NCBI GenBank assembly: GCA_034660735.1
Contig: JAYEJQ010000071.1
Location: 1 to 32,629 of the forward strand
Origin: Patescibacteria group bacterium
Lineage (GTDB): Bacteria > Patescibacteriota > Patescibacteriia > JAACEG01
Direction of reading: 5' to 3'
DNA: 32,629 nt
Under the pieces are notes generated by a model. That model worked only from the letters and a program-made list of their open reading frames with translations, did no database searches and was not told where the DNA came from. The first letter of the stretch is position 1, and the number at the start of each line of letters is the position of its first letter. This document shows, piece by piece, positions 108 to 5,060 of this stretch. The translations under genes were made by a program, and so were the position numbers.

Positions 108-197
108 GGAGAGGTGCTAGAGTGGTTGAATAGGACGCTCTCGAAAAGCGTTGCGCCCGCAAGGGCGCCGAGGGTTCGAATCCCTCCCTCTCCGCCA
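108..197 (+). tRNA. tRNA-Ser (anticodon CGA), long variable arm, CCA encoded
   Basis: Acceptor GGAGAGG (108-114) pairs with CCTCTCC (187-193); discriminator G194; CCA 195-197. Anticodon stem ACGCT/AGCGT with loop CTCGAAA. Long GC-rich variable arm. T arm GAGGG-TTCGAAT-CCCTC. Confidence 0.9.
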
Positions 198-543: not shown

Positions 544-590
544 TTGCTAACTATAGTATGTAGAACTAAAATTAGCAAGTGTGTATACTA
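544..590 (+). promoter_or_regulatory. candidate promoter and operator (C-box-like) of the C-protein/endonuclease operon
   Basis: TTGCTA (544-549), 17 nt, TAAAAT (567-572). Inverted repeat TTGCTAA (544-550) / TTAGCAA (572-578). Palindromes ACTATAGT (550-557) and GTATAC (583-588). TATAGTAT (552-559) and TATACT (584-589) match the two half-sites of the palindrome at 3422-3436. Confidence 0.35.
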
Positions 591-623
591 AAATTAACTT
601 TCAAAAATACTAAAAAGATTCTA

Positions 624-830
624 ATGAAAAAAGAAATTTTATTAAAATTTGGGGAAAAAGTCAAAGAAGAGAGATTAAAACAAGGAATTTCTCAAGAGGA
701 ATTGGCTTCTAAGGCGGGAGTACACAGAACTTATATTGGAATGATAGAAAGAGCAGAAAAAAATATTACCCTAGGAAATATTGAAAAAATGGCAAAAGCC
801 TTAAAAATACCAACTAAGGAACTTTTTTAA
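624..830 (+). CDS. XRE-family helix-turn-helix protein, likely controller (C) protein of the adjacent R-M module
   Basis: MKKEILLKFGEKVKEERLKQGISQEELASKAGVHRTYIGMIERAEKNITLGNIEKMAKAL is a classic Cro/C1-type HTH of the size and pattern of R-M C proteins. Its stop lies 9 nt before the next ORF. The ATG at 624 is preferred over the GTG at 579 used by the ORF track. Confidence 0.7.
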   Translation: MKKEILLKFGEKVKEERLKQGISQEELASKAGVHRTYIGMIERAEKNITLGNIEKMAKALKIPTKELF

Positions 831-839
831 TTTTGTATT

Positions 840-1844
840 ATGCAACCGAATAAAAAATTTATCACAATTAAAGATACCGAAAATAAAGTTAAAGCTCTTT
901 TGAACGAGCTTGTTTTACAGCCAAGGATAAATGCAATTAAATGGTCTCAAATAACAAAACAAACACCAAATATTAAAATCGGATACCCAGGACAACACCT
1001 TGCATCTTTAATTACAGGAATGGAAGGCGAAAGGACGGGAGCAAGAGGAAATGATTTAATAGACGGATCAGAGGTAAAATCATGTTCAAGAATAGATCAG
1101 CTTGATTTGTGCAAAGACTGTAAAACTCCAGTGGCAAGGCTTGAAAATGAATGTTCAAATTGTGGCTCAAATAATATTGATCGAAAAAAAGATTCAAAAT
1201 GGCTCTTTTCTGTTAGAACTAAAGACGAATTGAATGTTTTATTACATGAGGTAAAAAGAGTATTTTTAATCATTGGCGATTATCCAAATTTCGAAAATAA
1301 TGATTTTGAAACTTTAAGATTCCAAGCGTTTGAAATTTGGCCAGAAAATCCAAAAAATAAAAAATTTTCTGAAATAATGACCAATTACTATAATAAAATA
1401 TATTTGGCTCACAAAAAGAAAAATCCAAACAAAACTCCAGCTCCAAAAAACTTTTGGCCATACCAATATCAATTTTATATTTGTAATCCAATTCTTGTTT
1501 TTTCCTGTATAGTAGTGAAATCAAATTCTAATCCAAAAATAAATATTGAATATTATTTAAAACCTGTTGCTGACCGTTCAAAGAAAAAATCTATTTTAAT
1601 GCCAGCGAATATATTAAATGAAAAAGAAATTGATTTACTTTTTAGAAAAGCGCCAAAAGAAGAGATTTTGAAAATGATTAAAAAAGAGCATAAAATTAAA
1701 AAAATAAAGAAACTCTCTTTAAAGGAAAAACAAGAAATGTTTATTGGTATTGATGAAAATTTAAGAAATTATTTGCCTCTCAGAGATACTGATAAAATTT
1801 CCATTGCTAAAAGCAAATATTCAAGAAGAAAAAATTCAAAATAG
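840..1844 (+). CDS. putative type II restriction endonuclease (PD-(D/E)xK-like core with a CxxC...CxxC zinc-ribbon insert)
   Basis: The call rests on position, directly after a C protein and convergent with a methyltransferase. GARGNDLIDGSEVKS fits a D...ExK nuclease motif (D72, E78, K80). CKDC...CSNC (C91, C94, C105, C108) follows. I recognise no specific family with certainty. Confidence 0.45.
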   Translation: MQPNKKFITIKDTENKVKALLNELVLQPRINAIKWSQITKQTPNIKIGYPGQHLASLITGMEGERTGARGNDLIDGSEVKSCSRIDQLDLCKDCKTPVARLENECSNCGSNNIDRKKDSKWLFSVRTKDELNVLLHEVKRVFLIIGDYPNFENNDFETLRFQAFEIWPENPKNKKFSEIMTNYYNKIYLAHKKKNPNKTPAPKNFWPYQYQFYICNPILVFSCIVVKSNSNPKINIEYYLKPVADRSKKKSILMPANILNEKEIDLLFRKAPKEEILKMIKKEHKIKKIKKLSLKEKQEMFIGIDENLRNYLPLRDTDKISIAKSKYSRRKNSK

Positions 1845-3392
1845 TTTAGGAGTTCTTTTTAAGTTTTTTATTCTTTCTTTCGCTATTTTTGTGTATTTTT
1901 TATCAATATCAATACCGATATAATTTCTTTTAAGTTCAGCACAAGCTAAGGCGGTCGAACCTGCACCAACAAAAGGATCCAAAACAGTCATTCCTTCATT
2001 GCTACTTGCTTTTACTATTCTTTCAATAAGACGCACTGGTTTTTGTGTTGGGTGATATCGTTTTTCTTTGTAAAAATCAATATCATTCCAGACATCAGTA
2101 AATCCCATTTGGGCGTTAAAGATAAAATTTACTTCTGAATACGGTTTTTTAAATTTTAATATTTTTTCAAGCTTTTCCCATTGTTCTTTTGTTGGAATTT
2201 GAGCCAATATATTTTTACCAGTATACAAAGACCACAAACCGCCTCCGTTACTTTTAACTTCCATCGCTTCATTTATTTCTTTTGCGGTTAAGTCAGTTTC
2301 TTTTTGTCTATCAAGAAGAAACTTTTTTATTTCTGGTTGGTTATTGTAAGCAAAAAATAGAATACTTTCTGTCACATTGGGAAACATCTTATAGTTTTTT
2401 GTTGCTCTTCCGCTAACAGATCTCATTCCTTTGTTGATTATTATTTGCTGTCTTAAGGAAAAACCTTCTTTCTCAATTTCGGGGAGTAAATATGCTAAAG
2501 TTTTAAAGTACCCGAATAAATAAAAAGAACCTGTTTTTTTTGTAATTCGTACAAGCTCTTTGAGCCATTGTTTGCACCAAATAATATAATCGTTCTCGGT
2601 TCGCCATTTATAATCCCATTTTTCATTTATTACTTTCCAGTATGGAGGATCAGCAACAATCAAATCAATTGAATGATCTGGAATTTTTTTTAATTCTTCA
2701 ACTACATCTCCGCAAATAATTTTATTTAATGGTAATTTAGAATATTTTTTTACTTGCTTTTCTTCCTTTTTTTTTATGATTTCTGTATCTAAAATTTTAT
2801 TTTTTATCACATCAACAACAAGACCTTGAATGATAATTTCTTGCTCGTCTTTTTTTATAATGATTGGTTCATATTCTTTATTAGCTGGTTGCAGGCGTAT
2901 TTGATTTTTTTCTTTGTAGAATGTTTTTAATGTTGCCTCGTAATTATCAATCAAGGCAACTACTTTCTGTCCATTTTCAGCGACCTGCTGTTCTTTTACC
3001 AAAATAATATCACCATCATTGATATTTTCATCAATCATGCTTTTTCCTGCCACTCGCAAAGCGTAAAAATTTCCGCTTCTCATTATTTTTGTTTTTGGTA
3101 TAGCAATTGTTTCTTTTTCTTGAATAGCTTCAATTGGTTGTCCCGCAGCAATTGTTCCCATTAAAGGAATTTTTACCATTTGCTGGCTTTCATAAACGGA
3201 TATTGATCTTGGGCTGTTTTCTTCCTTATTCAAAAATCCTTCTTCTTGCAGTTTCTTTATATGAAAATGGGCGGTTGAAACAGAGGCAACTTTGAGTTTT
3301 TTGCGTATCTCTTCCAAAGAGGGGGCATACCCTTTTTTCTTGTGATATGAGGATATAAAGTCTAAAACTTGTTTTTGTTTTTTTGTTAGCAT
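1836..3392 (-). CDS. fusion protein: full-length LexA (winged HTH plus S24 autopeptidase) joined to a beta-class N6A/N4C DNA methyltransferase
   Basis: Residues 1-205 align end to end with LexA: MLTKKQKQVLDFI..., cleavage motif IAAG (A83-G84, nt 3141-3146), GKSM (S118, nt 3039-3041), TLK (K156, nt 2925-2927), GLVVDVIKN. Residues 225-518 carry DPPY (248-251, nt 2640-2651) upstream of HPTQKP and LDPFVGAGSTALA. That motif IV-before-motif I order is typical of the N6_N4_Mtase family. The ORF is one uninterrupted frame. Confidence 0.85.
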   Translation of the reverse strand: MLTKKQKQVLDFISSYHKKKGYAPSLEEIRKKLKVASVSTAHFHIKKLQEEGFLNKEENSPRSISVYESQQMVKIPLMGTIAAGQPIEAIQEKETIAIPKTKIMRSGNFYALRVAGKSMIDENINDGDIILVKEQQVAENGQKVVALIDNYEATLKTFYKEKNQIRLQPANKEYEPIIIKKDEQEIIIQGLVVDVIKNKILDTEIIKKKEEKQVKKYSKLPLNKIICGDVVEELKKIPDHSIDLIVADPPYWKVINEKWDYKWRTENDYIIWCKQWLKELVRITKKTGSFYLFGYFKTLAYLLPEIEKEGFSLRQQIIINKGMRSVSGRATKNYKMFPNVTESILFFAYNNQPEIKKFLLDRQKETDLTAKEINEAMEVKSNGGGLWSLYTGKNILAQIPTKEQWEKLEKILKFKKPYSEVNFIFNAQMGFTDVWNDIDFYKEKRYHPTQKPVRLIERIVKASSNEGMTVLDPFVGAGSTALACAELKRNYIGIDIDKKYTKIAKERIKNLKRTPKLF

Positions 3393-3398
3393 AAATAT

Positions 3399-3459
3399 TT
3401 GACTTTATTTTTTATTAAATCTATACTTATAGTATAATAGAAAGAAAATAGAAAGTCAA
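3399..3459. promoter_or_regulatory. mirror-symmetric pair of overlapping face-to-face promoters with a central 15-bp palindrome (candidate operator)
   Basis: Plus strand: TTGACT (3399-3404), 17 nt, TATACT (3422-3427). Minus strand: TTGACT (complement of 3454-3459), 17 nt, TATACT (complement of 3431-3436). The two -10 hexamers together form TATACT-TAT-AGTATA (3422-3436), centred at 3429. Confidence 0.6.
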
Positions 3460-3505
3460 AAGTTAATTTATTCACAAATTTTATTTTTAATTTAATCTAA
3501 AAATT

Positions 3506-3742
3506 ATGCAAAAACGAACAGCAACAAAATCACAAGTTAAAAAAGAGCGGGGCTTAAAAAAGGTTACAAAGGTTATTAAGCAAAAAGGTCATCCGTCAGG
3601 CAAACTGCCCAAAGGTAAAATTTTACACCATGTTAATTCAGTTGCCACTGGCGGAAAAACAACAAAGAAAAACACTCGTATCGTTACAAAGTCAAGGCAT
3701 AAACAAATACACAAAAACCGCAACAAACGAGGAAAAATTTAA
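3506..3742 (+). CDS. small, very basic protein with a minimal HNH-like motif
   Basis: This 78-aa protein has a Lys/Arg-rich N-terminus. LHHVNSVATGGKTTKKNTRIVTKSRHKQIH fits the HH...GG...N...H..IH beta-beta-alpha-Me (HNH) pattern. It is the first gene of a tight three-gene cluster. Confidence 0.4.
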   Translation: MQKRTATKSQVKKERGLKKVTKVIKQKGHPSGKLPKGKILHHVNSVATGGKTTKKNTRIVTKSRHKQIHKNRNKRGKI

Positions 3743-3761
3743 TATTAAAAACAAATAAATT

Positions 3762-4163
3762 ATGGAAAACAAGCGTAAACATCTCGAATTTATTCAGGCA
3801 ATCATCAGTCGAATGGCTGGCAATTTGTTTTTCTTGAAAGGATGGACTATCACATTAATTGTGGCACTTTTCGCATTTTTTGTAAAAGACGCGAATACCG
3901 ATTTTATTTTTGTCATTTATTTCCCAGTCATTATTTTTTGGATATTGGATGGGTATTTTCTTTCACAAGAACGATTATTCAGGGCGTTATATAATCATGT
4001 GCGAAAACTAGATGAAAAGGAAATTAACTTTTCAATGAATACAAATAAATATAATGAGGACAAAAGGAATGGTTGGCTACACTCAATGTTTTCGAGTACG
4101 CTTCTATTTTTTTATTTGCCACTTGTCGGCGTTATGTTATTAGTTACATATTTAATAAATTAA
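3762..4163 (+). CDS. small integral membrane protein (about 3 TM helices), function unknown; candidate effector partner of the TIR protein
   Basis: Hydrophobic spans are LFFLKGWTITLIVALFAFFV, FIFVIYFPVIIFWILDGYFL and a C-terminal TLLFFYLPLVGVMLLVTYLI. The gene starts 19 nt after the previous ORF and ends 10 nt before the next. Confidence 0.6.
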   Translation: MENKRKHLEFIQAIISRMAGNLFFLKGWTITLIVALFAFFVKDANTDFIFVIYFPVIIFWILDGYFLSQERLFRALYNHVRKLDEKEINFSMNTNKYNEDKRNGWLHSMFSSTLLFFYLPLVGVMLLVTYLIN

Positions 4164-4173
4164 ATTCAAAGTT

Positions 4174-4611
4174 ATGAGAAAAGTATTTTTTAGCTTCAAA
4201 TACAAGGATGTATCAAGAACAATGATTGTTAGGAATAGTTGGGTTGCTCAAGGAAAAGATGCGGCGGGTTTTATTGACTCCGCCGATTTTGAGGACTTGA
4301 AACGACAAGGTGACACAGCAATTAAAAACTGGATAGATAAACAACTCAATGGAACATCAGTTACTGTCGTCTTAGTAGGCGAAAAAACTTGTGATAGCAG
4401 GTGGGTAAAATATGAGATTGAAAAAAGCATTGAAATTGGGAATGGCTTATTAGGAATTGATGTAAGTAAGATAGAGGATTTGCAGGGTAATACTTCTGAA
4501 AGATGTGGCAAAATTCCAAAAGGTTACAATTTTTACCTTTGGAACAACGATGACGGATATCACAAAATGGGCGATTGGATTGAGAAAGCGGCGAAAGATG
4601 CTGGAAGATAA
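4174..4611 (+). CDS. ThsB-like TIR domain protein (DUF1863 / TIR-like family)
   Basis: KVFFSFKYKDV...VRNSWV...AAGFIDSADFEDLKR...TSVTVVLVGEKTCDSRWVKYEIEKSIEIGNGLLGI matches the ThsB/TIR-like signature as I know it. The match includes the RWV.YEI.KS segment with the conserved Glu (E81, nt 4414-4416). Confidence 0.8.
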   Translation: MRKVFFSFKYKDVSRTMIVRNSWVAQGKDAAGFIDSADFEDLKRQGDTAIKNWIDKQLNGTSVTVVLVGEKTCDSRWVKYEIEKSIEIGNGLLGIDVSKIEDLQGNTSERCGKIPKGYNFYLWNNDDGYHKMGDWIEKAAKDAGR

Positions 4612-4856
4612 AAGCCCCGCAAAAAAATCGGACGAAGCCCAAAAAGCAAAAGGGCAAAAAGGAAGGGGTCTATTCCGCTTTTACATTGGTATTGATTTTA
4701 TTTTCAAAATGGTTTAAAATAATAATATAAAAAAACAGGCATTACGCCTTTGTTTTATTTTGGGTTATATGCTGTTTTAACGGATATATTTTTATTTTCG
4801 CGGTTAATATTTACGTTTAGCAAAAGTTTATTTTGGCGTAAAGCACACCCTGTATT

Positions 4857-4930
4857 GTACCCGTAGCTCAATTGGATAGAGTGTCTGGCTTCGGACCAGA
4901 AGGTTGCAGGTTCGAGTCCTGCCGGGTACA
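4857..4930 (+). tRNA. tRNA-Arg (anticodon TCG)
   Basis: Acceptor GTACCCG/CGGGTAC. D arm GCTC..GAGT. Anticodon stem TCTGG/CCAGA with loop CTTCGGA. T arm GCAGG-TTCGAGT-CCTGC. Discriminator A. Confidence 0.85.
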
Positions 4931-4942
4931 CCTATAAGATAT

Positions 4943-5015
4943 CCGCCTGTAGCTCAATCGGCAGAGCAGGGGCCTCTTAAGCCCAAGGTTCTGGGTTCGA
5001 TTCCCAGTGGGCGGA
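4943..5015 (+). tRNA. tRNA-Lys (anticodon CTT)
   Basis: TA-GCTC...GAGC D arm. Anticodon loop CTCTTAA. T arm CTGGG-TTCGATT-CCCAG. The acceptor CCGCCTG/TGGGCGG has two G-U pairs, so the ends are uncertain by 1-2 nt. Confidence 0.75.
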
Positions 5016-5060
5016 CAAATTTGGAGTTGCCATAAATATTGTATTTATCAGCCGCTATTC

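Follow-up and report, generated by a model that had tools for sequence, protein, structure and literature searches.

The contig JAYEJQ010000071.1 from a Patescibacteria group bacterium (GenBank assembly GCA_034660735.1), analyzed here over a stretch of 32,629 nt (the window), carries three short, consecutive genes on the plus strand that encode a 78-aa lysine-rich protein with a minimal HNH motif, a 133-aa membrane protein, and a 145-aa TIR protein (Table 1). As reported in a first-pass annotation of the same DNA, the three open reading frames (ORFs) are tightly packed, with gaps of 19 nt between the HNH and membrane protein genes and 10 nt between the membrane protein and TIR genes. The trio lies downstream of a restriction-modification (R-M) module and has tRNA genes on both sides, which agrees with the defense context described in that annotation; the tRNA genes 3′ of the trio are followed by ORFs with the size and sequence of groES, groEL, and rpoB, as judged by eye from the translations. 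The membrane protein and the TIR protein are best interpreted as a two-gene TIR-signaling defense system of the type V Thoeris kind (ThsF plus ThsB, equivalent to the PADLOC system PDC-M50), at a probability of about 0.8, and the evidence on the HNH gene, described later, leads us to conclude that it is not a type V component.

Table 1. Positions of the genes and sequence elements at the locus within the window.
Feature	Position	Strand	Remarks
tRNA-Ser	108-197		
C-protein of type II R-M module	579-830		
MamI-like restriction endonuclease of R-M module	840-1844		
LexA-methylase fusion (N6/N4 methylase plus full LexA: helix-turn-helix and S24 peptidase)	1836-3392	-	Divergent from HNH gene
Face-to-face promoter-like sites, TTGACT-17-TATACT	3399-3427; 3459-3431	+; -	Consensus match only
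TTATTCACA	3468-3476	+	Fits DnaA-box consensus TTATNCACA; 30 nt before HNH start codon
78-aa minimal HNH gene	3506-3742	+	ORF, first of trio
133-aa membrane protein gene	3762-4163	+	ORF, second of trio
145-aa ThsB-type TIR gene	4174-4611	+	ORF, third of trio
GC-containing hairpin AGGCATTACGCCT, flanked by A-runs/T-runs	4737-4749		After TIR gene, before tRNA-Arg
tRNA-Arg and tRNA-Lys	4857-5016		

Profile and structure matches identify the 145-aa protein as a ThsB-type TIR. It was recovered by the Pfam family ThsB_TIR (PF08937; E=1.7e-22; 80 bits, cut-off 21) and by the PADLOC profiles ThsB (E=8e-55) and PDC-M50B (E=1e-44), and its nearest solved relatives were structures of Bacillus cereus ThsB (6LHY/9B7D; E=4e-29). 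The TIR segment WVKYEIEKS pairs with WVRYEIMKS of 6LHY/9B7D, placing E81 in the catalytic-Glu column, so that the ThsB/TIR-like signature with a conserved E81 noted in the first-pass annotation is borne out; the counterpart of E81 in BcThsB is E85. The protein is therefore presumed to act as phage sensor and as synthase of an NAD+-derived signal, with E81 as the catalytic Glu. Its closest solved relative, the ThsB of B. cereus MSX-D12, belongs to type I Thoeris and has the same catalytic Glu, and the protein is also 59% identical to the TIR2 domain of the type III Thoeris of Pseudomonas aeruginosa L0872; however, the partner in the window is a bare protein of three transmembrane (TM) helices, whereas types I and III use a SIR2-SLOG ThsA or a SLOG effector. 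Domain scans of the three proteins and three upstream neighbors found none of the SIR2-SLOG (type I), TM plus Macro (type II), or SLOG (type III) effectors, in accord with the earlier statement that no recognizable ThsA is present, and SLATT (type VII) was not among the Pfam matches at E≤1. Because SIR2, SLOG, Macro, and SLATT domains are lacking, the pair does not belong to type I, II, III, or VII.

A recent study expanded Thoeris to eleven validated types, of which type V consists of ThsB and ThsF, a three-TM effector annotated as DUF2270/PF10028, and defends B. subtilis (Yirmiya et al., 2025, bioRxiv 10.64898/2025.12.03.692087). In the same work, the type V ThsB of B. thuringiensis DAR 81934 made 3′cADPR, a cyclic ADP-ribose (cADPR) isomer; added 3′cADPR was toxic only when the type V system or its effector was present; and an AlphaFold 3 model of ThsF formed a ring with positive pockets between protomers that were proposed to bind the signal (Yirmiya et al., 2025). 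Table S1 of that study lists TIRs labeled “DUF2270 - Type V” sharing 77% identity with the window TIR and as much as 84% with the TIR of a related locus (L027), and in its Table S3, a DefenseFinder Thoeris_V entry has ThsF (G_2265063290) followed by ThsB (G_2265063291), in the same order as in the window and with a TIR 77% identical to that of the window. Within the TIR clade comprising the window, L001, L006, L011, L027, and L061, six of six genes adjoin a member of the PDC-M50A family. A link to the validated B. thuringiensis protein was also found: relatives of this ThsB (∼50% identity) encoded on plasmids of Priestia, Terribacillus, and Klebsiella adjoin homologs of the window membrane protein (47–51% identity), and at one further locus (L074), a B. 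thuringiensis-type ThsB (E=1e-41) partners the same membrane family. The window pair thus resembles type V Thoeris in that its operon consists of two genes, one for a ThsB TIR and one for a small three-TM effector, with the order ThsF then ThsB and a defense-island context, and given the type V listing, the absent ThsA would be replaced by the three-helix membrane effector.

The pair also corresponds to PDC-M50, as both proteins, encoded by adjacent genes, fit the profiles PDC-M50A (PDLC04686; E=2.6e-52, with matching residues spanning positions 1–131 of a 134-position profile) and PDC-M50B over their full length. The PDC systems are 145 phage defense candidates predicted by guilt-by-embedding, without tests (Payne et al., bioRxiv 10.1101/2024.01.29.577857), and PDC-M50, unlike type V Thoeris, is itself a prediction without a mechanism; a literature search for “PDC-M50” found no paper naming the system, and an E. 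coli TIR survey (PMC11350192) gave no decisive answer on the membrane protein family. The first-pass annotation had treated the locus as an unrecognized system, which no longer holds: the pair is PDC-M50, TIRs 77–84% identical to those of its clade are listed as type V (Yirmiya et al., 2025), and a described Thoeris subtype thus already covers the module. Its proposal of a new minimal membrane effector survives as regards the small membrane protein being the effector but not as regards novelty, since both the PADLOC entry and the type V preprint precede it.

To assess the linkage of the two genes, 80 genome loci found via the membrane protein were fetched from many phyla and, together with the window, gave a sample of 81. 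The 80 loci cover Patescibacteria, Beta- and Gammaproteobacteria (including Nitrosomonas europaea ATCC 25978), Actinomycetota, Chloroflexi, Planctomycetota, and archaeal metagenome-assembled genomes (MAGs). By tblastn, a TIR homolog was present on the same strand within 1.2 kb of the membrane protein gene in 75 loci, with the membrane protein gene first in 68 of these (median gap ∼17 nt) and the TIR gene first in the other seven. Among the six loci without a tblastn TIR, three have a ThsB of another clade that scores above the Pfam cut-off, and two end at contig ends; in total, a same-strand ThsB gene adjoins the membrane family in 78 of 79 assessable loci. Co-occurrence of the whole trio across genomes, which had been raised in the first-pass annotation, therefore applies to the membrane protein and TIR genes, whereas the HNH gene lies upstream of the membrane protein gene in only two of the 81. 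The pair also occurs on plasmids (40 Klebsiella and 36 Escherichia records). As a side observation, the combination of a TIR and a ThsF-like protein is common on enterobacterial plasmids, with 72–74 of ∼120 matching records predicted to be conjugative; on one such Klebsiella plasmid (AP022022, L171), the pair lies near a DNA methylase, a DNA polymerase III theta gene, and a DUF1380 gene.

Despite this linkage, the two proteins do not diverge together. Divergence of the membrane protein and of the TIR was uncorrelated (Spearman rho=0.04, n=80): TIRs with 81% identity or more to that of the window partner membrane proteins that are 40–91% identical to it, and membrane proteins at least 74% identical to that of the window partner TIRs that are 40–95% identical. 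Thus, TIRs 81–88% identical to the window TIR can pair with effector subfamilies only 40–44% identical, and the converse was also seen (L001-L080, L093-L138). The two genes are freely shuffled, which is the pattern anticipated for proteins coupled by a diffusible signal. The three-TM module was also found in fusions. In P0253 (L172, 3001–4137), it forms the C-terminal domain behind an N-terminal SLOG domain, and the gene directly follows a TIR gene; P0259 (L173, 2031–3119) is likewise a SLOG-three-TM fusion encoded right after a TIR gene; and in P0286, a ThsF-like module stands in tandem behind an 8xMP domain. A C-terminal position on SLOG sensor domains is that of an output domain, and such natural fusions could help separate signal sensing from membrane action.

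The 133-aa protein itself received no Pfam or NCBIfam assignment and had no Macro or SLATT match in Pfam at E≤1. Its family is large, with 1,553 clusters at 90% identity, and at 50% clustering, an exhaustive profile search returned 4,641 representatives, of which 2,800 reached E≤1e-10. An AlphaFold2 (AF2) monomer built from a deep alignment (pLDDT 96.1, pTM 0.86) was used in preference to a discarded model from a shallow alignment (pLDDT 60). It predicted three long helices at residues 2–43, an N-terminal amphipathic cytoplasmic extension running into TM1; 46–82, comprising TM2 and a second cytoplasmic extension; and 112–132, which is TM3 and is preceded by a loop. Hydrophobic stretches are evident in the sequence as well, and the earlier description of the protein as little more than three TM helices is therefore well founded. 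Foldseek comparison of the AF2 model with the PDB yielded nothing with an E-value below 1.3, and this fold thus has no structural precedent there. Separately, the protein matched the PHROG family phrog_19896 (function not known; E=3e-41), and therefore some phages or prophages carry the membrane effector family.

Across 107 family representatives, E70 is the sole invariant residue, and conservation is 90% or higher at K4, H7, Q12, R17, K26, W28, D63, R74, and Y77. Judged by the positive-inside rule and the AF2 model, these residues probably sit on both helix extensions, on the same membrane face, and their location appears to coincide with the basic signal pockets of the published ThsF model; the conserved K4, H7, R17, K26, and R74 on the cytoplasmic extensions are compatible with positively charged pockets between protomers. 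The first-pass annotation had held that neither partner of the TIR has room for a known nucleotide-sensing domain, an objection that loses its force given that the published model proposes signal pockets between the protomers of a ring. A housekeeping role for either the 133-aa or the 78-aa protein, considered in that annotation as a possible outcome of profile searches, was rejected, as neither matched NCBIfam and both occur in defense neighborhoods across phyla.

The assignment of the pair to type V Thoeris is weakened by several observations, concerning mainly the effector. The window membrane protein had no PF10028 match even at E≤1, unlike the effector of type V as annotated. Matches at E≤1, which count in favor of the assignment, were obtained for 23 of the 107 family representatives (selected at a profile E<1e-30), in a consistent register, and two proteins from the sampled loci matched in the same register (E=0.05 and 0.22); since the best match in the family reached only 1.4e-5, membership of the family in DUF2270/PF10028 is marginal at the sequence level. 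A homolog search with the Priestia member returned no protein from B. thuringiensis, none from Bacillus sp. 1NLA3E, and none with a Pfam label, and the link to validated type V systems is therefore indirect. The published experiments also appear to lie outside the window clade and outside Patescibacteria, the window coming from a Patescibacteria-like host and the validated systems from Bacillus. Finally, one of two validated type V systems gave no response to added 3′cADPR (Yirmiya et al., 2025), which makes the signal used by the window clade uncertain. By analogy with the validated systems, the window pair would nevertheless be expected to behave as a type V system, with a signal of the same class and a comparable oligomer.

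Other systems in which a nucleotide signal triggers an oligomeric membrane protein offer a more general likeness, namely TM-Macro effectors (type II), SLATT effectors (type VII and CBASS), and 8xMP, although the window membrane protein lacks any Macro or SLATT match. The Pfam family 8xMP (PF24838), named “octameric membrane protein,” is of similar size and also adjoins TIR genes. Homology to it was considered and rejected: an hhalign probability of 97% proved to be an artifact, as the fusion P0286 had placed its N-terminal 8xMP domain in both alignments. A clean comparison gave a probability of 0.5% and E=0.11, against an 8xMP profile of only three sequences; the window protein had no 8xMP match in Pfam, and a literature search on 8xMP found nothing relevant.

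The first gene of the trio presents a different picture. By its colicin-type motif, the 78-aa product is probably a minimal HNH protein (ββα-Me), and its conservation indicates a selected gene. The motif H41-H42-x13-N56-x8-H65-x3-H69 aligns residue by residue with the H-N-H of colicin E9 and pyocin AP41, with weak support in the PDB search (E 0.4–0.8), and H41, H42, G49, G50, K51, T52, N56, H65, and H69 are invariant in 22 homologs. All profile scores fell below their cut-offs (Col-Pyo_DNase, E=0.002 and 18.7 bits vs. 27; HNH, 13.2 vs. 21.4 bits; PHROG HNH, E=0.003), whereas a few homologs bear an HNH label from NCBI or Pfam, and two carry precomputed PF21431 or PF01844 labels; the minimal HNH motif reported in the first-pass annotation is accordingly present, with the reservation that profile scores remain sub-threshold. 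The family comprises 124 clusters, nearly all of exactly 78 aa and 60–91% identical. The protein shares the HH…N…H…H spacing and GG motif of colicin E9, pyocin AP41, and McrA-type HNH proteins (PF01844) but consists of a core of ∼35 residues with basic tails and has no zinc-finger cysteine, immunity protein, or targeting domain.

HNH context was described from 89 loci found via the 78-aa protein. The next gene encodes a divergent subfamily of the membrane protein (40–48% identity, gaps of 7–51 nt), usually followed by a TIR gene, in 17 of these, and a different TIR with an 8xMP membrane protein in five. In others, it belongs to CBASS (cyclase E=4e-125, plus E2 and a TM protein) or encodes an AriA/OLD-type ATPase-TOPRIM, a PLD-SNF2 protein, a KAP NTPase (PDC-S20), a TIR protein (PDC-S66), a DUF4062-TPR protein (PDC-S60), PDC-M48, or R-M components, and many cassettes were met only once. 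Viral contigs carry almost no members of the HNH family, and the cassettes it leads are found mostly in uncultivated lineages. Since the gene precedes many unrelated defense systems, it is not dedicated to Thoeris, and the claim of a specific three-gene system was not upheld; we conclude that it is a promiscuous, LexA-linked defense-island gene that could act as regulator, shared nuclease, or mobility factor.

The LexA family is the most common upstream neighbor of the HNH gene, directly adjacent (position −1) in 20 of the 89 loci and within three genes in 24. Both divergent and co-directional arrangements with the HNH gene occur, the latter with a gap of 26–33 nt that contains a ribosome-binding site. 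Several of these neighbors are LexA-methylase fusions as in the window (also L081/L083, L091, L125, L157, and L166/L167). The window fusion matched TIGR00498 (lexA) above its cut-off (E=4e-53) as well as the Pfam families LexA_DNA_bind, Peptidase_S24, and N6_N4_Mtase. The fusions differ in kind, with LexA fused to a C5 methylase next to a Bsp6I-like restriction endonuclease in L081/L083 and to an N6/N4-type methylase next to a MamI-like one in the window. This architecture suggests that the R-M modules or their neighbors are wired to the SOS signal.

Where lexA and the HNH gene are divergent, the intergenic regions are mutually related and conserved, and they carry TTATCCACA, which reads TTATTCACA in the window. 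In 10 of 84 loci, the 120 nt preceding the HNH gene contain a DnaA-box-like motif, where ∼0.5 such loci would be expected (∼20-fold enrichment); it lies 17–41 nt before the start codon and, in all but one of the 10 loci, next to a divergent lexA. The motif-bearing lexA-HNH regions are those of the window, L023, L088-L091, L157, and L166/L167. In the window, the motif lies downstream of the face-to-face promoter-like sites, whose −10 boxes together make the palindrome TATACTTATAGTATA (3422–3436). The promoter consensus scan returned seven sites in the region vs. 6.5 expected, and the support for these two sites thus comes from position and symmetry rather than from statistics. No terminator-like site was found between the three genes, and the hairpin downstream of the TIR gene is likely a bidirectional terminator that closes the unit. 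With a promoter-like site 5′ of the first gene, no internal terminator, and a hairpin with T-run 3′ of the last, a single transcription unit is plausible, consensus scans not amounting to proof. Elsewhere in the window, a large nested palindrome (193–409) begins at the 3′ terminus of tRNA-Ser; its perfect arms lie at 267–299/303–335 (33 nt, 3-nt loop) and 193–217/385–409 (25 nt), and it could be either a structured element or a fold-back assembly artifact.

One reading of these data is that the HNH gene and lexA form a DNA-damage-responsive regulatory or mobilizing module that heads exchangeable cassettes and has no part in Thoeris chemistry. The frequent LexA-family neighbors, the conserved divergent intergenic regions with their enriched TTATNCACA motif, the high variability of the cassettes after the HNH gene, many of which are recognized defense systems, and the near absence of the family from viral contigs all point in this direction. 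However, neither a conserved junction nor a recombination motif was found after the HNH gene, and neither att-like direct repeats nor a compositional break was found around the island in the window; the HNH-LexA association may be merely the conserved flank of a defense hotspot; and a literature search on HNH/LexA defense hotspots found no published description, the role being deduced from gene context. The reading is thus put forward as a tentative possibility. Its wider form, in which the HNH gene, often with a LexA gene and sometimes with a LexA-methyltransferase fusion, would be an undescribed general head module of exchangeable defense cassettes (Thoeris V, TIR plus 8xMP, CBASS, OLD/AriA-like, KAP, PLD-SNF2, and R-M) in Patescibacteria and other uncultivated lineages, is doubtful on present evidence; such a module could couple cassette expression to DNA damage, supply a shared nuclease arm, or serve cassette exchange.

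A true three-component system, in which the HNH protein would act as another effector, as a nuclease gated by the signal, or as a required accessory, is improbable. The co-orientation of the HNH gene with the pair, the 19-nt gap, and the apparently shared promoter without an internal terminator would fit such a system, as would the invariant catalytic motif and the recurrence of the gene before the membrane protein gene, with a TIR gene usually third, in the 17 HNH loci, as well as in L023 from another phylum; in five loci, it also precedes a second kind of TIR with a small membrane protein, TIR plus 8xMP. Against this, the HNH gene is missing upstream in 79 of the 81 membrane protein loci and in the plasmid copies; its 124 clusters contrast with the 1,553 of the membrane protein; the same gene precedes CBASS, AriA/OLD-like, KAP, PLD-SNF2, DUF4062-TPR, PDC-M48, and R-M genes; and the published type V systems function as two genes, Yirmiya et al. 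(2025) making no mention of an HNH gene such as the extra one in the window. The protein also has no obvious place to bind a signal, as there is nothing beyond its core and basic tails.

In the proposed type V mechanism, ThsB would detect phage infection, and its TIR domain, through E81, would turn NAD+ into a cADPR isomer, either 3′cADPR, as in B. thuringiensis, or another. The signal would diffuse to the three-helix membrane protein, which may form a homo-oligomeric ring with basic inter-protomer pockets built from the cytoplasmic extensions (K4, H7, R17, K26, E70, R74, and Y77); ligand binding would open or disrupt the membrane, and phage replication would stop through abortive infection or arrested growth. 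The HNH gene would be co-transcribed but separate, a promiscuous defense-island gene linked to lexA. That the TIR is instead the NAD+-depleting effector, with the membrane protein as its sensor, anchor, or regulator, is very improbable: NADase effector action is known for many bacterial TIRs, and Yirmiya et al. (2025) voice this caveat for configurations they had not verified, but the window TIR falls in the ThsB clade that makes cADPR isomers (6LHY/9B7D closest), type V ThsB proteins make 3′cADPR that is toxic only with the effector, the C-terminal fusion of the three-TM module to SLOG sensor domains beside TIR genes is an output-domain arrangement, and the free shuffling of partners speaks against a tight sensor-enzyme complex.

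The pair is thus already known as type V Thoeris/PDC-M50, and what may be new is the pattern of an HNH/LexA leader ahead of defense cassettes. The main value of the finding lies in classification, in that a Thoeris without ThsA in a genome of the candidate-phyla type is accounted for as a type V/PDC-M50 pair, which extends the range of type V to bacteria with very small genomes. The effector family is also broad, reaching across many phyla, Klebsiella and E. coli plasmids, and some archaeal MAGs, and its conserved cytoplasmic residues provide a list of candidate signal-pocket positions for work on ThsF, which the natural SLOG fusions beside TIR genes and the free exchange of TIR and effector partners could likewise guide. 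If the LexA-linked HNH gene is indeed shared by many systems, it would represent a common layer of regulation or mobility for defense cassettes in poorly studied lineages.

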